Origin: Elusimicrobiota bacterium
GTDB taxonomy: Bacteria; Elusimicrobiota; Elusimicrobia; F11
NCBI GenBank assembly: GCA_046153645.1
Contig: JBJXGI010000099.1
Location: 14,781 to 78,780, forward strand
DNA length: 64,000 nt
Direction: 5' to 3'
Shown: positions 6,438 to 64,000 of the stretch, one piece after another
Layout of the letters: each line of letters starts with the position of its first letter
How positions within the stretch are numbered: the stretch's first letter is position 1
Notes under the pieces: model-generated
Database searches by the model: none
Seen by the model: only the letters and a program-made list of their open reading frames with translations
Told to the model about the DNA's origin: nothing
Made by a program: the position numbers and the translations under genes

Positions 6438-7856
6438 ATGGCCATTAGTAGTGATCAATATAATTTAGGCATAATGACTTGGAAAGACTCTCGAAAATTA
6501 GTCATTCGTTTTTTTCTTTTGATGAGTGATTTGTTGGCGATTTCCATTGCTTATTTATCGGCCTATTGTATCCGCTTTTATTACTCACCATTTATCGGTA
6601 ATTTCCCTATTACGAAAGGTTTCCCACCTGTTCTAGAGTATTTGCAAGCGGCCCCCATCATTTTATTTATGTGGGGAGTGTCGATTTTTTTTCAAGGCGC
6701 CTATACTCGTCTAAACTTGGCCGCCATTGACGAAGGTATTCGAACATTTAAAGCTGTCTTTTTTGGAACACTTTTATCTATGTCCGCGATGTTTTTATAT
6801 AGGGACGCTTCATTTTCGAGAATTGTTTTTGTTTTGGGTGGTATTCTTAGTTTTTTTACGATTTATTTGTTTAGGCAGCTTTTAAAAATAACTTACATCT
6901 CTTATATTAAAGCCCAGAGAAAACCCCAACGCATTCTTGTTGTTGGAGAAGGCAGGCTGTTAAACTCAATTAAAAAGATTTTAGATCGACATGGAGATAA
7001 AGCAGTTTTAAAAATGGTTGATTTTAATATTGAGAAAATTCTTCACACAATTATTCGATCTAAAATTGCGGAAGTTTTATTGGCACATCCTGATGTTGAA
7101 CATAAAGAAATTGTTAAGTTGTCTAACTTTTGTGAAAGAAAAAAAGTTATTTTTCGACTTATTCCTGATATTTTAGAAATCAGGATGGGCGAAATTATTA
7201 TTGATGAATCATTAGGCTTGCCGACATTTCAAATTAAGTCGATTTCTTTGGCGGGTTCAGCTTTTTTAACCAAACGAATAATGGATGTTTTTATAGCAAC
7301 ATTATTAATAGGAGCTTGTATTGTCCCATTTCTAATGATTGCTTTTCTTATAAAAATTACTTCGATTGGCCCCATTTTTTATACGCATAAGAGAGTCGGT
7401 TTTAGAGAAAGATTGTTTGATTTTCTGAAATTCCGGACGATGGTTTCAAATGCCGATGATTTACTTACGGACTTAAAAGAAAAGAGTGATCGTAAAGGTC
7501 CTGTTTTTAAAATGAAAAATGATCCTCGAATTACTTGGATTGGAACTTTTTTAAGAAGAACCAGTTTAGATGAAATTCCACAACTGTTAAATGTTTTGAG
7601 AGGGGAAATGAGTTTAGTGGGGCCTCGCCCTCAAGTCGTGTGGGAAGCGCAAAATTATGATGACTGGGCAAAAAAAAGACTCAATGTGTTGCCAGGAATT
7701 ACAGGTCTTTGGCAGGTTAGTGGTCGAGCCGAACTGACGTATGAAGAAATGATTGAGCTTGATGTTTATTATCTCGAACACTGGTCGCCTGGTTTGGACA
7801 TTAAAGTTTTATTGCGCACTATTCCAGCCGTTTTATTTGCAAAAGGAGCTTATTAA
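6438..7856 (+). CDS. Undecaprenyl-phosphate sugar phosphotransferase (WbaP/bacterial sugar transferase family)
   Basis: N-terminal TM helices, then the C-terminal catalytic block KRVGFRERLFDFLKFRTM…RPQVVWE…PGITGLWQVSGR. Confidence 0.8.
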   Translation: MAISSDQYNLGIMTWKDSRKLVIRFFLLMSDLLAISIAYLSAYCIRFYYSPFIGNFPITKGFPPVLEYLQAAPIILFMWGVSIFFQGAYTRLNLAAIDEGIRTFKAVFFGTLLSMSAMFLYRDASFSRIVFVLGGILSFFTIYLFRQLLKITYISYIKAQRKPQRILVVGEGRLLNSIKKILDRHGDKAVLKMVDFNIEKILHTIIRSKIAEVLLAHPDVEHKEIVKLSNFCERKKVIFRLIPDILEIRMGEIIIDESLGLPTFQIKSISLAGSAFLTKRIMDVFIATLLIGACIVPFLMIAFLIKITSIGPIFYTHKRVGFRERLFDFLKFRTMVSNADDLLTDLKEKSDRKGPVFKMKNDPRITWIGTFLRRTSLDEIPQLLNVLRGEMSLVGPRPQVVWEAQNYDDWAKKRLNVLPGITGLWQVSGRAELTYEEMIELDVYYLEHWSPGLDIKVLLRTIPAVLFAKGAY

Positions 7857-57515: not shown

Positions 57516-58448
57516 ATGATTCAAGAAAAACGTGATTTCATTTCAATGGCTGATTTTTCAGCCGATGAAATAGGAAAGATATTATCACTGGCTCGCCACT
57601 TAAAAAAAAGAAAACTATCACATGAATTAACAGGGCAAACCATTGGTCTTATTTTTCAAAAACCATCAACAAGAACAACTGTTTCTTTTGCCGTGGGAGT
57701 TTCACAATTAGGCGGAAATCCGCTTATTTTAACCGCAGATGCCCTTCAAATTAAACGTGGAGAATCTCCAAAGGATACTGGAAGAGTTCTCTCTCGATAT
57801 TTAGATGCGATTGTTATACGTGCCCACCGCCATGAAGATATTTTAGAAATGGCCAGTTTTGCCAGTATTCCTGTTATTAATGGACTAACAGATATGGAAC
57901 ATCCATGCCAGGTGATGGCGGATTTGCTCACCATCATGGACAAAAAGAAAATGAGTTCCGTCAAAGATTTAAAAGGGTTTCACTTGTGTTATATTGGAGA
58001 TGGAAATAACATGGCACATTCACTTATGTTGGCCTCCTCTCACCTGGGAATAAAATTAACATTGGCTTGTCCGCGTGGTTATTGGCCGTTATCGACTTAT
58101 ATTCAACTTTCTAAAAAACTCTCTCAAAAAGGCCGAGGATCGGTTCAGATTACGCAAGATCCCAAAGATGCGGTGAAAGGAGCCGACGCCGTTTATACCG
58201 ATGTTTGGACTTCTATGGGACAAGAAGCAGAGGTACAGCGTCGAAAACAAATTTTTTCTCCCTATCAAATTAATCAAAAGTTACTCAAATTGGCCAAAAA
58301 AGATTCTTTGGTGATGCATTGTTTACCCGCTCATAGAGGTGAAGAAATAACGGATGATGTCATTGAAGATCCACATTCTGTTATTTTTGATCAAGCTGAA
58401 AATCGACTGCATGCACAAAAAGCGATTTTAGTCACTTTGTTGGGTTAA
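57516..58448 (+). CDS. argF: Ornithine carbamoyltransferase-family protein
   Basis: Carbamoyl-phosphate site STRTTVSF, HCLPAHRGEE (the HCLP motif typical of OTCase rather than ATCase). Confidence 0.75.
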   Translation: MIQEKRDFISMADFSADEIGKILSLARHLKKRKLSHELTGQTIGLIFQKPSTRTTVSFAVGVSQLGGNPLILTADALQIKRGESPKDTGRVLSRYLDAIVIRAHRHEDILEMASFASIPVINGLTDMEHPCQVMADLLTIMDKKKMSSVKDLKGFHLCYIGDGNNMAHSLMLASSHLGIKLTLACPRGYWPLSTYIQLSKKLSQKGRGSVQITQDPKDAVKGADAVYTDVWTSMGQEAEVQRRKQIFSPYQINQKLLKLAKKDSLVMHCLPAHRGEEITDDVIEDPHSVIFDQAENRLHAQKAILVTLLG

Positions 58449-58451
58449 AAA

Positions 58452-58979
58452 ATGATTTTTTCTATTGGAACTGATTCTCCTCAAATTCATCCCAGCGCTT
58501 TTATTCATCCCACCGCGGAAATATCCGGTAAAGTCAAAATTGGAGCACATGTTTCCATTTGGGGAGGATGTATTCTCAGGGGCGATGTTGACTGGATTGA
58601 AGTGGGAGAAGAATCTAATGTTCAAGATGGTTGTGTGTTTCATACAAGTCATGGAATGCCCGTCAAATTAGAGCAAGGAGTAACAGTGGGACACCGCGCT
58701 GTTATTCATGGTTCAATTGTTAAATCTTATTCACTTATTGGCATGGGTGCTATTTTGCTGGATAAATCAATAATTGAAGAAAAATGCTTGGTGGCCGCAG
58801 GGGCCGTGGTTCGAGAGGGGGGCATTATTCCTGTTGGTCAATTGGCAGCTGGGGTTCCCGCTCGGGTCATTCGAGCTTTGACTCCCAATGAGTTAGAAAT
58901 GATTCTTAAACGTCCTTCTGAATATGTGAAATTGGCAGCCGTTTATAAAGATGCCCTCCAAAAAGCCCATATCATCTAA
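58452..58979 (+). CDS. Gamma-carbonic-anhydrase / hexapeptide-repeat (LbH) family protein
   Basis: Hexapeptide repeats and His ligands (…GHRAVIHGS…). Confidence 0.7.
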   Translation: MIFSIGTDSPQIHPSAFIHPTAEISGKVKIGAHVSIWGGCILRGDVDWIEVGEESNVQDGCVFHTSHGMPVKLEQGVTVGHRAVIHGSIVKSYSLIGMGAILLDKSIIEEKCLVAAGAVVREGGIIPVGQLAAGVPARVIRALTPNELEMILKRPSEYVKLAAVYKDALQKAHII

Positions 58980-59544
58980 GATTGATTTTATTTTGGCCTC
59001 CGGGTCACCCAGACGAAAACAGCTCTTACGCGCTGCCGGTTTTAAATTTGAAATTATTCCCAGTCAAGTTTCTGAGAAAATGCCTTCAAAAACACCGCCC
59101 GGTGTTCTCGTCAGAGCATTGGCTATTAAAAAAGCAATTGCTATTTCCAAAAAATACCCGCAACAACTTGTATTAGGGGCCGATACCATTGTTTATATCA
59201 ATGGTCATGTTGTGGGCAAACCCCGAAATGCTGTCCATGCAAAGCGTATTCTTGAAGAATTATCTGGTCATTGGCAAAAAGTTTATACCGGAGTGGCTTT
59301 TTCTTCTCACGGTGGTAAAAAAATAATTTCAAAGGTCGGAATATCACGCGTAAAGATTCGAAAATTAAGTGAAATGGACATTAGACGAGCATCAACTCAA
59401 CATTTAGACAAAGCTGGCGCATATGCCGTTCAACAAAAGAAAGATCCTTTTGTTGAGAAAATTGTGGGAGATTATGACAATGTTGTGGGGTTACCAGTAA
59501 AGATTGTAAAACGACTATTGAGCAGGTGGAGCCGTCGGCGCTGA
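58951..59544 (+). CDS. maf: Maf-family nucleoside triphosphate pyrophosphatase
   Basis: ILASGSPRRKQLL…GADTIV…. The track start overlaps the previous gene by 29 nt, so the true start may be downstream. Confidence 0.85.
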   Translation: MPSKKPISSKIDFILASGSPRRKQLLRAAGFKFEIIPSQVSEKMPSKTPPGVLVRALAIKKAIAISKKYPQQLVLGADTIVYINGHVVGKPRNAVHAKRILEELSGHWQKVYTGVAFSSHGGKKIISKVGISRVKIRKLSEMDIRRASTQHLDKAGAYAVQQKKDPFVEKIVGDYDNVVGLPVKIVKRLLSRWSRRR

Positions 59545-60270
59545 GGGTTGAGGCGGTGTTGGTGGTTGAAGCCTTTTTTTGAAAGTGTCTGAGACAAAAT
59601 TAACTTTTAAAGAAGAGTTGAGCTGATTTAACCAATCGCCGTAAACGAGATTAAACTCCTGATTTCTTATCTGCTCTTTAACTTGATGGGGATTGTCTTT
59701 TAATTCTTTGATCTTTTTCGGATCTTTTTCGGTTTTTAATCTGTTGGCTAATTCTTCGGCGGCTTCTGAATCCGTCACATGAATGGAGCTAAAGAGAAGT
59801 CTGTTTAATCTTCTGGCCGCGGAATCTTTCTTCTGAATTGTCTCAAAATCTTTTAATGATAAACCAAAAATTTGACGCACTGATTGAACGTAAGTAGCAG
59901 GATCAAATTTTCCTTCTTTTTGAAAAGCAGGAATAGAGGCCAGATCTAACTGTAAATCTTGATCGGTGATTTGAATTCCAAATTTTTCTGATTCCTGATT
60001 AAAAACTTCTTGTCTTATCACTTCTTGGAGGGTTTGGTTTTCTAATTGAAAGCGTTCTTCTTCTGAAGTGGGGGGGCGCTGCCGGATGATCTGTTTTAAA
60101 ATTTGATCATAATGTCTTTGTCTGATTTTTTCACCATTGACAGTTAAAATTACATCATTTGCTGAGGTACCCATTGAAGAGGTTCCTACCCCAAAAAACA
60201 CCATGGCAACAGCACAAATACACAGGAAAATAAAAACAAATTTTTTATGTTTGCGGAAGAAACTGAACAT
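59515..60270 (-). CDS. Membrane-anchored SurA-N/PpiD-like chaperone-domain protein lacking a parvulin domain
   Basis: N-terminal TM anchor FVFIFLCICAVAMVFF, then a SurA_N-like region (VILTVNGEKIRQRHYDQILKQ…), then a Pro-rich tail. Its 3' end overlaps maf by 30 nt on the opposite strand. Confidence 0.4.
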   Translation of the reverse strand: MFSFFRKHKKFVFIFLCICAVAMVFFGVGTSSMGTSANDVILTVNGEKIRQRHYDQILKQIIRQRPPTSEEERFQLENQTLQEVIRQEVFNQESEKFGIQITDQDLQLDLASIPAFQKEGKFDPATYVQSVRQIFGLSLKDFETIQKKDSAARRLNRLLFSSIHVTDSEAAEELANRLKTEKDPKKIKELKDNPHQVKEQIRNQEFNLVYGDWLNQLNSSLKVNFVSDTFKKRLQPPTPPQPSAPTAPPAQ

Positions 60271-60288
60271 GACTAAAGAATAGTAAAT

Positions 60289-60729
60289 TTATTCTTTATG
60301 ATCCATGCCGACAACTTTTAATTGGCGAGGACGTTTTTGGTTTTCTTCATGAGGGAAATCTTGAGGGCTCAGTTCGAGAACTTTTCCATCTGTTTTAACC
60401 GTTTGACATTGACCTTCGAATTGAGCGCCATCGATGATAATAAGCTTAGCGGTTTTAATATCACCTAAAAGTTGAGATTTTCCCAGTAGTTCAAGGGTCG
60501 TTGTCGCGGTTACATTGCCTTTTACTTTTCCAGCAATAGTGATTCTGTTGGCTGAAATATTTCCAATAACAGCTCCGTGGTCACCAATCACGATAGCTTC
60601 GGCGGTAATATCACCATTTACTTTTCCATCTATTCTCAATGATTCACCGGTTTGAAGGGAACCTTCAATTTGAGTTTCTGGCCCAATGATGGTTTCTATA
60701 TTTTCATTTTTTCCGAATTTAAAAGACAT
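60289..60729 (-). CDS. Bactofilin (CcmA-like polymer-forming cytoskeletal protein)
   Basis: Beta-helical bactofilin repeats: GKVNGDITAEAIVIGDHGAVIGNISANRITIAGKVKGNVTATTTLELLGKSQLLGDIKTAKLII. Confidence 0.8.
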   Translation of the reverse strand: MSFKFGKNENIETIIGPETQIEGSLQTGESLRIDGKVNGDITAEAIVIGDHGAVIGNISANRITIAGKVKGNVTATTTLELLGKSQLLGDIKTAKLIIIDGAQFEGQCQTVKTDGKVLELSPQDFPHEENQKRPRQLKVVGMDHKE

Positions 60730-60749
60730 ATATTCCTCCCGAGCGCATC

Positions 60750-61826
60750 TTAAAGAAAGTCCTCACTAGATTCAATAAGAGTTTTCGCTATTTTAAGTCT
60801 ATCGATAATAAAAGAAAAAATATTGATGGGGGTTGGTTGTTGTGGTGACTTTACAAGTCCACTATCTTCGGCTTTTTCTAGAGCCAAAATAGCTTTTTTC
60901 TCTAAGTCACTGGCTTTAAGATAAGGCATGGGGTCCAATCGAACATTGTTTTTCCATACTTCATAATGGCAATGAACGCCTGATGAACGCCCTGTGCTTC
61001 CCATGAGTGCTATGGTTTGACCTCTTTTAACTTTGTCACCGGTCTTAACGATAAGTCGACTGTTATGACCAAAACGAGTGGAATAGCCAAATTCATGATT
61101 GATAACCACTAAATTCCCGTAACCACTTTTCCATTCTGAAAGTTGAACGGTTCCATCTGCAGTGGCTCTTACAGGTGTTCCTAATGAGCCTGAAATGTCT
61201 ATTCCGGGGTGAAACTCAGAGCCGCCACCAAAAGGAGACATGCGATTTCCGTAGTGAGAAGTTAAATGTCCACGCGAGGGCCAATTGGTTGGTTTTGCTC
61301 GATACATTCGTTGTTTCGTTTCAATTAACTTAGAAAGTTCTTCATAAGAGGAAAGTCTTGTTTGAGTTTCTTTTTTAAAGGAGTCGGAAGTGTTGACCAA
61401 TTGTTCCCATGAAAAATGAGATGATCTATGGCGAAGAGTTTGATTAATTTCTTTTTGATCTAAAATGGTAGGTCCACCTGTTCCCACTTCTTTTTGAAAT
61501 TTCAAAATCTGCCTGAGTTCTTGGTCGACTTGTTTAACCTCGTCTAGGTATTGGCGAGAGGTATTAATTTCACTGACTAAATATTGAATTTTCATTTGGA
61601 GAACTCGATTGGATATTTGTGTTCTCCAATAGTCTACGTGTTGAGCCGACAAATAAGAGCCCCAAATGGTAACTCCTGTCCAGAGGGCAAACAAAGTAAG
61701 AAAAACTGAAAAATGGAAATTAATTTGAATAGGTTTATTCGCCCCATGAGAAACAATCATGAAGGTGAATCGATGTGAGAAGATGCGTTTTATTCGAGAT
61801 ATCATCACTTGGCCTAAACTTAACAA
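60750..61826 (-). CDS. M23-family (LytM-domain) metallopeptidase with N-terminal TM/coiled-coil
   Basis: HPGIDISGSLGTPVRATADGTV…GYGNLVVINHEFGYSTRFGHNS…GSTGRSSGVHCHYEVW (HxxxD…HxH zinc ligands). Confidence 0.85.
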   Translation of the reverse strand: MLSLGQVMISRIKRIFSHRFTFMIVSHGANKPIQINFHFSVFLTLFALWTGVTIWGSYLSAQHVDYWRTQISNRVLQMKIQYLVSEINTSRQYLDEVKQVDQELRQILKFQKEVGTGGPTILDQKEINQTLRHRSSHFSWEQLVNTSDSFKKETQTRLSSYEELSKLIETKQRMYRAKPTNWPSRGHLTSHYGNRMSPFGGGSEFHPGIDISGSLGTPVRATADGTVQLSEWKSGYGNLVVINHEFGYSTRFGHNSRLIVKTGDKVKRGQTIALMGSTGRSSGVHCHYEVWKNNVRLDPMPYLKASDLEKKAILALEKAEDSGLVKSPQQPTPINIFSFIIDRLKIAKTLIESSEDFL

Positions 61827-61917
61827 GCATCTGGCTTGTTTTCAATGAGATATTTGATACACGGGGGGCTTTTTGGTTAGGAAGATAAAGGCCGTCCTGC
61901 AATCAATTCTAAACTCA

Positions 61918-62724
61918 TTATACTCCTTTTTCTTCGTCGGTGGTCTTTTTTGCGTCATTGTGATAGAAAACCATGTTTGTTCCGCCGGCTTCAATCAGAG
62001 CGCCATTTTCGAGGAAAATTTGCTCTTTTACAGGGGTTCCATTCACTTTGGGGTACCCTGCTTTGACGGCTTTTAAAAAATAGCCCTCAGGTCGGCGACT
62101 GATAGCGGCGGCCAGACCAGGAACCAGAAAACCCTTGATTTTAATAGCAGATTGATCTGCCCCACCAATATAGGTAACAAGGTCTTTTAGAAGGATTTCT
62201 GTTTGACCATTGACCCCGCCAGAAACAATGCGAATCACACCGTATTTTAGATCTGTTTTTGGCGGCTCGGGGCTTAAATTGTTTTGAATTTCTGAAATAG
62301 AAGAAGATTCCTCTTTTGGGGGGAGACCTAAACTTTTTCTCAGCATTTCACGTTGTGATTCTATAGAGTCTTTTTTAGGTTCCTCTTGATTGAGATCGGG
62401 TGTATTTTCAACGGGAGCGGGTAGATTATCTGGTTCTTTATCTGTAATAAATTCTAATACATGTCCGGCAATTCCAACTTGATCTTTATGTTTGATTCGA
62501 CCACTTTTGATCCTCTGTCCATTAAGAAAGGTTCCATTGGTGCTGTTTAAATCTTCAATAATATAATGATCGCCCATTTTCTTTATTTTGCCGTGAAATC
62601 CTGAAATGGTGGGGTGATCAATAGCTATATCATTGTTCGGTTTTCTGCCGATTGAAATTTCATCTTTATCGATGGGGATTTCTTTAATAACGGCAGAATT
62701 AAATTTAACGTATATCTTGGCCAT
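61918..62724 (-). CDS. FHA-domain protein
   Basis: N-terminal FHA: ISIGRKPNNDIAIDHPTISGFHGKI…IEDLNSTNGTFLNGQRI. The C-terminal half carries a second, degenerate FHA-like region. Confidence 0.8.
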   Translation of the reverse strand: MAKIYVKFNSAVIKEIPIDKDEISIGRKPNNDIAIDHPTISGFHGKIKKMGDHYIIEDLNSTNGTFLNGQRIKSGRIKHKDQVGIAGHVLEFITDKEPDNLPAPVENTPDLNQEEPKKDSIESQREMLRKSLGLPPKEESSSISEIQNNLSPEPPKTDLKYGVIRIVSGGVNGQTEILLKDLVTYIGGADQSAIKIKGFLVPGLAAAISRRPEGYFLKAVKAGYPKVNGTPVKEQIFLENGALIEAGGTNMVFYHNDAKKTTDEEKGV

Positions 62725-62727
62725 CTA

Positions 62728-63573
62728 TCAATTCCTCTTTGGTTTTGATCTCAGGATTTTTTTGAGTCTTTCAGTTAAGTTGCCCCAAGCGCTAGATTCT
62801 TCTTTTATAAGGCCAACTATGGCTGTTACGTTATCTAATCCACCCGATTGATTGGCTAAATCAATGAGTTGATCAACAATTTCTTGCGGCTCGGTTTTAG
62901 TATAGAAAACATTTTCAATTTGCGTGTCATCTAACATTTTCGAAAGCCCATCAGAGCATAACAGAATATAATCGCCTTGAGATAGTTCAATTTCATTTAA
63001 GTCCACATCAACATCAGCGGAAATGCCAACGGATCTAGTAAGCATGTTTCTCATGTCAGATTTTTCCGCATCTTCTGCTTTGAGCAGTCCTTTGTCGACT
63101 TGTTCTTGAACGAAACTATGATCAACGGTGATTTGTTTTATTTTTTTTCCTTGTCTAATAACATAAAGCCGACTGTCTCCCACATGGCCAATGGAAAGTT
63201 TGTTCTCTAAGCAGAGTGCCACAACAATGGTCGTTCCCATGTTATGGTTTTCTGCGGTTTTTTGCGCGGCTTCGTTAACAACACTATTGGCAAGTTTTAT
63301 ACAGTCGCCAAGAATAATTGTTCTTGGATCTAATTGTGGGTTTTTTGGTACGTGAAAAAAAACAGGAACATGGCCCGTTTGAAGAGACCGTTTTAATTGC
63401 TCACTGCTAATGGACGTGGCCAGTTGGCTGGCCACCTCTCCAGAGGCGTGTCCACCCATGCCATCGGCAACAATCATGAGTCCCAAATCTTCATCTATAA
63501 GCATGCAGTCTTCATTTTTACTGCGCTTCATTCCTTTGTCGGTTTTTCCCGATATTTTAATTGAATATCCCAT
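62728..63573 (-). CDS. PP2C-family Ser/Thr protein phosphatase
   Basis: MLIDEDLGLMIVADGMGGHASGEVAS…GDSRLYV…LLCSDGL…GGLDNVT. Confidence 0.85.
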   Translation of the reverse strand: MGYSIKISGKTDKGMKRSKNEDCMLIDEDLGLMIVADGMGGHASGEVASQLATSISSEQLKRSLQTGHVPVFFHVPKNPQLDPRTIILGDCIKLANSVVNEAAQKTAENHNMGTTIVVALCLENKLSIGHVGDSRLYVIRQGKKIKQITVDHSFVQEQVDKGLLKAEDAEKSDMRNMLTRSVGISADVDVDLNEIELSQGDYILLCSDGLSKMLDDTQIENVFYTKTEPQEIVDQLIDLANQSGGLDNVTAIVGLIKEESSAWGNLTERLKKILRSKPKRN

Positions 63574-63579
63574 GGTTAT

Positions 63580-64000
63580 TTACTTTTGTTCAGGATTATC
63601 TTTTGGAAAATCAGGTTGAAATTTTTTTTCAATATTTGGGTTTAAAGGAATATCTTTCCCTGGGTTTGTGCTGGGATCAAAAGTAACTGTTTTTTCAATA
63701 GCCAACGTTTTTTCACTTTTAAAGGTATTTTCCAATTCAGAAAGAAAATCATCTTTTGATACGGCTTTATTGTTTTCTATTTTTGGGTCAATTTTTGAAT
63801 CAATTGGTTTCTCTTTTGAAACGCTTTCATTCGAAGATAGCGGTTTTTCGATTGGTTCAGTTTTTTTAATAACAGGAGGAAGTACCTCTTCTGTGTTATT
63901 TGGATCTTTTAATTTTCTTAAGCAAATCTGAAGATCCATAAACATATCTCCGGATGATTGATATCGATTAATGGGGTCTTTTTGAAGCGATTTAGAAATT
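63580..64000 (-). CDS. Hypothetical protein, 3' portion only (N-terminus lies beyond the window end); Lys/Glu/Pro-rich tail
   Basis: The minus-strand frame stays open through base 64000. It sits upstream of, and is co-oriented with, the PP2C/FHA genes, and could be their partner kinase or a scaffold. No motif is visible in the window. Confidence 0.3.
   Translation of the reverse strand, partial: ISKSLQKDPINRYQSSGDMFMDLQICLRKLKDPNNTEEVLPPVIKKTEPIEKPLSSNESVSKEKPIDSKIDPKIENNKAVSKDDFLSELENTFKSEKTLAIEKTVTFDPSTNPGKDIPLNPNIEKKFQPDFPKDNPEQK

Follow-up and report, generated by a model that had tools for sequence, protein, structure and literature searches.

Six co-oriented genes at one end of a 64,000-nucleotide stretch of DNA from an uncultured Elusimicrobiota bacterium (GenBank assembly GCA_046153645.1, contig JBJXGI010000099.1, positions 14,781 to 78,780; hereafter the window) raise the question of whether serine/threonine phosphorylation controls a cell-shape module. 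Genes for a kinase, a PP2C phosphatase and an FHA-domain protein are followed by genes for an M23 peptidase, a bactofilin and a membrane-anchored SurA_N protein. The original prediction took this arrangement as a sign of phospho-regulated morphogenesis or division. It is fairly likely that the region is instead the junction of two separately conserved modules, module A (kinase-PP2C-FHA) and module B (M23-bactofilin-SurA_N). Direct control of module B by module A is plausible, if doubtful.

Gene content and distribution of the two modules

All six minus-strand open reading frames (ORFs), as well as maf on the plus strand, are present in the window, and every gene of the cluster described earlier was confirmed by its coordinates and by profile searches (Pfam, NCBIfam). 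The features are, in window positions:

63580..64000, minus strand: 3' end of the kinase gene, last 139 codons, cut by the window edge; a CHASE2-sensor Hanks-type kinase by homology and synteny
62728..63573, minus strand: PP2C-type Ser/Thr phosphatase of the Stp1/IreP family, 281 amino acids (NCBIfam NF033484, Pfam PP2C_2 and PP2C)
61918..62724, minus strand: two-domain adaptor with an FHA and a degenerate FHA-fold domain, 268 amino acids (Pfam FHA, E 1e-21)
61806..61917, minus strand: intergenic gap between module A and module B, 112 nucleotides, with a weak candidate promoter by sequence comparison
60750..61805, minus strand: LmdC/Csd1-like M23 DD-endopeptidase candidate, 351 amino acids (Pfam Peptidase_M23, E 2.5e-33)
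60289..60729, minus strand: bactofilin, 146 amino acids (PF04519, 96 bits)
59515..60270, minus strand: membrane-anchored SurA_N-only protein, 251 amino acids (PF13624, SurA_N_3, 106 bits)
58951..59544, plus strand: maf, nucleotide pyrophosphatase (TIGR00172, 156 bits, cutoff 117)

The start codon of the M23 gene is more likely the ATG at 61805 (351 amino acids) than that at 61826, based on a 100% identical NCBI protein (P0121) and the family alignment. The gap between the FHA and M23 genes is therefore 112 and not 91 nucleotides. The other distances are 6 nucleotides (kinase-PP2C), 3 (PP2C-FHA), 20 (M23-bactofilin) and 18 (bactofilin-SurA_N), and this spacing suggests two tight blocks.

The survey of module A was anchored on the FHA protein, which in the window is 100% identical to P0001, an NCBI protein from a metagenome-assembled genome. 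In GTDB, sampled at one genome for each species, 80 loci matched over the full length, and their six-frame ORFs were searched with the window proteins. The loci come from Elusimicrobiota, Nitrospirota (Nitrospira), Desulfobacterota, Acidobacteriota, many Burkholderiales, Steroidobacteraceae, Woeseiaceae and others. In nearly all 80, the PP2C gene immediately precedes FHA, usually with a kinase gene before it, and the triad is present in at least six phyla-level lineages. Except for three loci of close relatives, no locus of this survey has M23, bactofilin, SurA_N or Maf genes beside the triad, and this includes seven other Elusimicrobiota loci. The genes after FHA vary elsewhere and include POR (2-oxoacid:ferredoxin oxidoreductase), TPR, formyltransferase, ETF-QO and DnaB genes. 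Judged from these neighborhoods, the kinase-PP2C-FHA triad is an independent signalling cassette of multiple phyla. Our literature search found no description of a cassette of CHASE2 kinase, PP2C and FHA-pseudoFHA protein.

Module B is found without the triad. Three Elusimicrobiota loci (L088-L090), whose M23 proteins are 38-43% identical to that of the window, carry M23-bactofilin-SurA_N and no triad, and two of them have a convergent Maf gene. In the triad-less loci L088-L093, a ValRS or topoisomerase gene is upstream of M23. The M23 gene adjoins the bactofilin gene on the same strand in the window, and this pairing is kept in L001, L002, L084-L086, L088-L093 and others. The SurA_N gene follows the bactofilin gene in the same named loci (for example, L088 9492-10226, L089 8485-9213 and L090 8408-9109). 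A metagenome scan with the M23 alignment yielded at least 80 distant LmdC-like loci (29-39% identity, GC content 0.32-0.72, 607 kb). Among the 80 loci listed, bactofilin directly follows M23 in 11, SurA_N comes next only in the three closest, and no FHA gene or triad lies beside M23. The M23-bactofilin pair of Elusimicrobium minutum is listed among 226 species in the supplement of the LmdC study (PMC10945521). By gene content, module B is the Elusimicrobiota form of the published bactofilin-M23 module, occurring without the triad.

The two modules are juxtaposed in the window, L001, L002/3, L084 (bacterium F11), L085 and L086, that is, in six genomes with FHA identity down to 47%. The juxtaposition is absent at 46% FHA identity (L087 and L004). 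The size of this clade rests on these six genomes, as the matches listed from the metagenome M23 scan were distant relatives only. The gap between FHA and M23 ranges from -4 to 195 nucleotides in the clade. The flanks are syntenic, with Era-GATase-cNMP upstream and Maf-hexapeptide-OTCase-TolB-CpoB-Pal-UvrA downstream. Because both flanks are syntenic, conservation of the junction alone is not evidence of selection and adds little weight, with L001 as a partial exception in its upstream flank. In one Elusimicrobiota clade, module A would have come to sit immediately before module B, with the genes of both co-oriented.

The signalling cassette and its partners

The ORF that runs off the window had been guessed to be a kinase or a scaffold. 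Its translation opens with ISKSLQKDPINRYQSSGDM, which corresponds to the end of a Hanks kinase domain, and it aligns to amino acids 816-991 of a syntenic 1000-amino-acid CHASE2+Pkinase protein in L001 (BLASTP, E 1e-12). The domains of the L001 kinase are CHASE2 (28-394) and Pkinase (578-829). Genes for CHASE2+Pkinase proteins of 944-1054 amino acids precede PP2C in L001, L002/3, L084, L085 and L086. The window covers the last kinase subdomain and the tail, and the N-terminus of the kinase and its upstream neighbor are deduced from the syntenic relatives only. Homology and synteny identify the edge ORF as the C-terminal end of a Ser/Thr kinase with a predicted CHASE2 sensor, and the first of the two guesses holds.

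The tail alignment indicated that the kinase tail of ~120 amino acids is specific to the clade with the M23 juxtaposition. Its conserved motifs are DFLSELxxTF, a repeated [DE]KT[VIL][VIT], and IExxFQP. The kinases of L004, L007 and L087 stop right past the catalytic domain, without the tail. The tail motifs are candidate phosphothreonine docking sites for the FHA domain.

The PP2C protein matches the NCBIfam Stp1/IreP model (NF033484) with 247.2 bits (cutoff 230) over profile positions 1-230 of 232. The FHA protein matches PF00498 with 77.6 bits (cutoff 20.7, E 1e-21) at amino acids 23-85. Its canonical FHA domain spans amino acids 1-98 (nucleotides 62431-62724), and a degenerate FHA-fold domain spans amino acids ~158-258 (nucleotides 61951-62253). 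In the N-terminal domain, no alignment shows variation at G26, R27, S41, H44, S61, N63 or G64. The Elusimicrobiota sets are also invariant at T62, and alignment A1 alone at T65; both residues are conserved in at least 90% of sequences otherwise. The model of this domain superposes on the FHA domains of GarA and OdhI, with a target-normalised TM-score of 0.93 for GarA (Foldseek). The match to the FhaB/FipA model is sub-threshold (60 bits, cutoff 125). Some JGI records label homologues of this protein as a component of the type VI secretion system (T6SS). This label was rejected, with 42.3 bits to TagH (TIGR03354, cutoff 120) and no T6SS genes in the neighborhood.

The second, degenerate FHA-like half noted in the original prediction is real. 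The Foldseek search with the whole model was dominated by the N-terminal domain, and the C-terminal domain was assessed by HHalign of the two halves. The N- and C-terminal halves align with 76% probability (E 2.3e-5) over 78 columns in register. The C-terminal ~100 residues alone match Pfam Yop-YscD_cpl at positions 1-93 of 94 (E 4e-4), a sub-threshold match of 21 bits (cutoff 33). AlphaFold2 (pLDDT 85.7) predicted two confident beta-sandwiches and a disordered linker with one helix. This predicted helix, QREMLRKSLG (amino acids 121-131, nucleotides 62332-62364, minus strand), is conserved in the clade only. Thus, a degenerate second FHA-fold domain is supported by both the sequence comparison and the predicted structure. 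The positions corresponding to GR, SxxH and STNGT, which bind phosphothreonine, are substituted in the C-terminal half, and canonical phosphothreonine binding is therefore not expected there.

From these domain assignments, the CHASE2 domain would sense an extracytoplasmic cue, the kinase would write phosphothreonine marks, and PP2C would erase them. The N-terminal FHA domain would read the marks, while the degenerate FHA-fold domain may bind a partner in a phosphate-independent manner.

Two known systems are built from similar parts. The actinobacterial pknA/pknB-pstP-rodA-pbpA-fhaB-fhaA cluster combines genes for Hanks kinases, PP2C and FHA proteins with genes for cell-wall morphogenesis, as in the window. 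In contrast to that cluster, the sensor here is CHASE2 rather than PASTA, FHA is represented by one protein that also carries a pseudo-FHA domain, the neighbors are a hydrolase and a bactofilin rather than the RodA/PbpA synthases, and the linkage is seen in one clade only. The T6SS switch PpkA-PppA-Fha1 (TagH) is built from the same parts as module A, with a kinase in the membrane, PP2C as the eraser and FHA as the reader. The window differs from it in having no T6SS genes nearby and in the kinase ectodomain.

The genes around the triad suggest where its output may go. A cNMP_binding gene of ~165 amino acids lies directly upstream of the kinase in L002/3 and L084-L086 of the clade (L002 3728-4222, L084 1455-1940, L085 1654-2169 and L086 1559-2047). 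In L087, FHA is immediately followed by a cNMP_binding gene on the other strand (6765-7211, minus strand). In Burkholderiales, a gene of the metallo-beta-lactamase fold, PDEase_II-like, follows the triad in ~30 loci (e.g., L022 10946-11824), and a gene combining CHASE2 with an adenylate/guanylate cyclase domain (CHASE2+Guanylate_cyc) follows it in 11 loci (e.g., L028 10664-12967). In L015 and L017, the kinase is preceded at ~5 kb by a cyclase-domain ORF. The window ends short of the position where a cNMP gene would lie. In the loci surveyed, cyclic-nucleotide genes are recurrent partners of module A. The triad may accordingly act in a cyclic-nucleotide circuit of cNMP-binding proteins, CHASE2 cyclases and phosphodiesterases, unrelated to module B. 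We hold this to be possible rather than probable. The evidence is purely associative, the kinase gene of L001 adjoins no cNMP gene, and many triad loci have no such part within 10 kb. This reading bears only on what module A acts upon and does not conflict with the two-module reading.

The bactofilin-M23 module

The best PDB sequence match of the M23 protein is 5j1l_A (E 2.7e-25), with the HxxxD motif, the catalytic His and the HxH motif aligned. This entry is Csd1 of Helicobacter pylori (PMC5053510). Across 59 homologues, no variation occurs at the zinc and catalytic residues H199, D203, H247, H278 and H280. The AlphaFold2 model (pLDDT 84.5) consists of an N-terminal helix, hairpin strands at residues 12-17 and 26-31 (pLDDT ~90), a helix at 32-100, helices at 114-170, and the M23 domain at 180-290. 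A hydrophobic helix is predicted at residues ~30-53, where the Kyte-Doolittle maximum is 1.53 (residues 30-48), a moderate transmembrane prediction. The model thus shows the bitopic architecture of LmdC: a putative cytoplasmic beta-hairpin (residues 12-31), a membrane helix, a periplasmic coiled coil and the M23 domain. LmdC was described with this architecture, and its cytoplasmic hairpin binds bactofilin (PMC10945521). In LmdC of Rhodospirillum rubrum, residues of hairpin strand 1 are required for the binding (PMC10945521).

Most LmdC-like proteins of the metagenome set share an N-terminal [FY]-T-hhhh-P motif in hairpin strand 1. The corresponding sequence in the window is R12-F13-T14-F15-M16-I17-V18. 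Residue 19 (nucleotides 61749-61751, minus strand) is Ser in the window and Pro in at least 90% of homologues, which changes VPHG to VSHG in the hairpin motif.

The bactofilin matches PF04519 with 96.3 bits (cutoff 27.9) over the entire profile (1-98 of 98). The membrane-targeting consensus of bactofilins is MFSKKKK, and M1, F2, K4 and K7 are critical in BacA of Caulobacter crescentus (PMC12448750). The N-terminus in the window, MSFKFGK, matches it at M1, K4 and K7, with F at position 3 and not 2. The bactofilins of relatives start with MFLKSxK or MFGKxKE. The last ~35 codons of the bactofilin gene encode a C-terminal extension that ends in a conserved N/QLKVV..K. This extension is clade-specific and absent from the triad-less relatives.

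The claim that the M23 and bactofilin genes form a Csd1/CcmA-type module is borne out by the Csd1 match and, for the LmdC/BacA type, by the predicted architecture and the published E. minutum pair. The closest known system is BacA-LmdC of Hyphomonas neptunium and R. rubrum (PMC10945521). Like the window, it has adjacent M23 and bactofilin genes (the survey in that study counts either order), and its M23 protein has the hairpin, the membrane helix, the coiled coil and the M23 domain with zinc ligands; the N-terminus of the window bactofilin resembles a membrane-targeting peptide. The window, known here from sequence and models, differs in the third gene (SurA_N) and the upstream kinase/PP2C/FHA cassette. 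In Csd1-Csd2-CcmA of H. pylori, an M23 gene is likewise next to the bactofilin gene (PMC5053510). Unlike that system, the window has one M23 gene, no inactive Csd2 partner, and no Csd5 or Csd7 genes, and its N-terminal hairpin and long coiled coil are closer to LmdC than to the helical domain of Csd1.

The product of the third gene has an N-terminal transmembrane helix (Kyte-Doolittle 2.81 at residues 11-29), a SurA_N_3 domain and a Pro-rich tail, and no parvulin domain; in the profile searches it matched SurA_N_3/SurA_N_2 only. It had been described as a PpiD-like chaperone. The membrane anchor and the SurA_N part stand, and the protein shares this N-terminal order with PpiD of Escherichia coli. 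The PpiD identity itself was rejected: the score to the PpiD equivalog NF008054 is 39 bits against a cutoff of 493, the protein has 251 amino acids rather than ~620, and it has neither a parvulin domain nor the C-terminal chaperone part. Among the metagenome matches listed, bactofilin-M23 loci at a greater distance lack a gene for such an anchored SurA_N protein, and no mention of a SurA_N partner was found in the bactofilin-M23 literature searched. Across Elusimicrobiota and in the nearest metagenome relatives, the anchored SurA_N protein is conserved as the third component of the bactofilin-M23 module.

Following the published module, bactofilin would recruit the bitopic M23 endopeptidase via the cytoplasmic beta-hairpin, and the periplasmic M23 domain, with its complete zinc site, would then cut peptidoglycan cross-links locally. 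The SurA_N protein would join them as a third partner particular to this lineage and would probably serve as a periplasmic holdase or scaffold.

On the opposite strand, maf converges on the SurA_N gene, and the two overlap tail to tail by 30 nucleotides. The convergent SurA_N/Maf pair is also present in the triad-less L088 and L089. The maf gene is a neighbor outside the transcription unit. Its proximity had been taken as a hint of septation, an argument that is weak since maf is convergent and its pairing with SurA_N predates the arrival of the triad. The plus strand from 54886 to 59544 encodes Pal-like OmpA, CpoB/YbgF-like TPR, TolB-like PD40, ornithine/aspartate carbamoyltransferase, gamma-carbonic-anhydrase-like hexapeptide and Maf proteins, and their order is kept in the relatives of the clade.

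The junction and the possible link between the modules

A promoter and terminator scan of positions 59300-64000 returned nothing in the gap between FHA and M23, with counts no higher than those of shuffled sequences, and no terminator-like hairpin was found past the FHA gene. An Rfam scan of positions 59000-64000 at E<=1 gave no match; therefore, there is no riboswitch or leader in the gap. Comparison by eye with the motif of relatives gives a weak promoter candidate in the window: CATTGAAA (-35, 61845-61840), a 17-nucleotide spacer ending in TGT, and TAAGTT (-10, 61822-61817). The candidate -10 ends 11 nucleotides before the ATG of M23, so that the mRNA would be nearly leaderless.

In seven of eight relatives, a promoter-like motif, CATTGAC[AT]-N17/19-TAnnnn, lies 42-119 nucleotides upstream of the M23 start, and TGG or TGT often precedes its -10. 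A given 6-mer is expected in roughly 0.06 of such intervals. The positions of the motif are:

L001 8783-8811, triad present
L084 7000-7028, triad present
L085 6696-6724, triad present
L086 6777-6805, triad present
L088 6933-6961, triad-less
L089 6930-6960, triad-less
L090 6942-6972, triad-less

In L002, the FHA and M23 genes overlap by 4 nucleotides, and no intergenic promoter is therefore possible there. The signs of a single operon are mixed: no terminator was found and the genes overlap in L002, yet the gap in the window is 112 nucleotides and the motif is present in seven of eight relatives. The motif makes a separate promoter for module B probable, and transcripts from module A may read through because no terminator was seen. 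The default would be two transcription units, with module B under its own promoter and possible read-through. According to the original prediction, separate promoters and terminators at this gap, together with an upstream ORF unrelated to signalling, would reduce the arrangement to coincidental adjacency. Of these, a promoter-like motif was found, in seven of eight relatives, which counts in part against the prediction.

The alternative is one phospho-regulated morphogenesis operon. The CHASE2 kinase would mark a cytoplasmic part of module B, the FHA/pseudo-FHA adaptor would bridge kinase and target, and PP2C would reset the system, so that an envelope signal switches peptidoglycan cleavage. 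Candidate phosphosites are Thr14 of the M23 hairpin, the [DE]KT tail of the kinase and the FHA linker. Several observations weigh against the two-module reading and favor this one. The co-orientation of the genes, the lack of a terminator-like site and the L002 overlap are all compatible with one operon, and the promoter candidate of the window is weak, was missed by the scan and implies a nearly leaderless mRNA. The junction is kept across the six genomes, including L001, where the upstream flank differs. The clade-specific [DE]KT tail, FHA linker helix and bactofilin LKVV tail coincide with the juxtaposition.

The PP2C-M23 pairs of distant lineages belong to the same side. Only three PP2C matches occur in the 607 kb of listed metagenome loci, each immediately upstream of M23 and co-oriented. 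The pairs are located as follows:

L106 1-1576, GC content 0.49
L112 3421-5336, GC content 0.71
L115 6258-7987, GC content 0.36, 4-nucleotide overlap, Bdellovibrionota
L171 4266-6008 (L171/L172)

PP2C and M23 overlap by 2-4 nucleotides in two loci, and the L115 pair recurs in a relative of 69% identity whose downstream genes differ. In L167, a stand-alone kinase-domain ORF lies ~2.5 kb downstream of M23. The PP2C genes upstream of LmdC-like M23 in three other lineages argue that Ser/Thr signalling is linked to this peptidase family beyond chance, a lead that, like the clade-specific ones, rests on few phylogenetically independent events. No paper on PP2C+M23 operons was found in the literature search.

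A single operon is nevertheless rather doubtful. The triad and the M23-bactofilin pair are unlinked in all other lineages sampled, a promoter-like motif is conserved before M23, and with both flanks syntenic the adjacency could be a single neutral rearrangement. The PP2C-M23 loci have no FHA, kinase or bactofilin neighbors. Literature searches for phosphorylation of bactofilin or LmdC, for bactofilin with FHA and kinase, and for CHASE2 with FHA and PP2C found none. The proposal of phospho-regulated morphogenesis or division is thus upheld in its parts, with a kinase, no terminator, the L002 overlap and the distant PP2C-M23 pairs, and weakened as a whole by the independence of the triad, the triad-free occurrence of module B, the promoter motif and the syntenic flanks.

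A more specific proposal places the control at the M23 hairpin. The conserved Thr of [FY]-T-hhhh-P lies in the strand needed for bactofilin binding in R. rubrum LmdC. The LmdC-type M23 protein, and thereby the bactofilin module, may be controlled by reversible phosphorylation at this Thr, with the full set of writer, eraser and reader in the window clade and a PP2C eraser alone with the M23 operon in Bdellovibrionota and two other lineages. A Thr followed at +3 by a hydrophobic residue, as in this strand, is a common type of FHA ligand. The proposal is unlikely as it stands. The hairpin Thr is also conserved without an adjacent triad and may be purely structural.

It is very improbable that the M23 protein acts in the divisome in the manner of EnvC, as a LytM amidase activator with a coiled coil rather than as a bactofilin-guided endopeptidase, and that the cluster serves septation, which would fit maf and the Tol-Pal genes (Pal-like, CpoB-like and TolB-like, 2-5 kb away on the other strand). 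In favor of this reading, the top Foldseek match of the complete model is EnvC at full length, bound in the FtsEX complex (8tzl_E, 354 columns), and the NCBIfam EnvC, NlpD and ActS models give sub-threshold matches. Against it, the root-mean-square deviation of the EnvC superposition is 41 A, so that the architecture alone matches; every NCBIfam equivalog score is far below its cutoff; the zinc ligands and the catalytic His are all invariant, whereas EnvC and NlpD lack a complete metal site; and the hairpin and membrane helix are LmdC features, no ftsEX is adjacent, and the bactofilin gene follows directly. The EnvC-type identity was rejected on the intact metal site and the membrane anchor. 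Some members of the M23 family have lost enzymatic activity (PMC10945521).

Under the preferred two-module reading, both modules are of known kinds, and their arrangement and the recurrence of PP2C-M23 pairs are undescribed as far as our literature search shows. The bactofilin-M23 literature searched describes recruitment; an upstream signal for switching the hydrolase was not found in it. A neutral adjacency would make the locus an ordinary case of two module types already known. Should the juxtaposition be functional, the wiring would run from the sensor kinase via phosphothreonine and the FHA adaptor to the M23 tail or bactofilin. The PP2C-M23 pair of Bdellovibrionota may offer a route for a test if cultivable members share it. 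Phosphorylation at the hairpin, if true, would be the first known regulatory input to the bactofilin-M23 module and would link a CHASE2 signal to local cell-wall cleavage.

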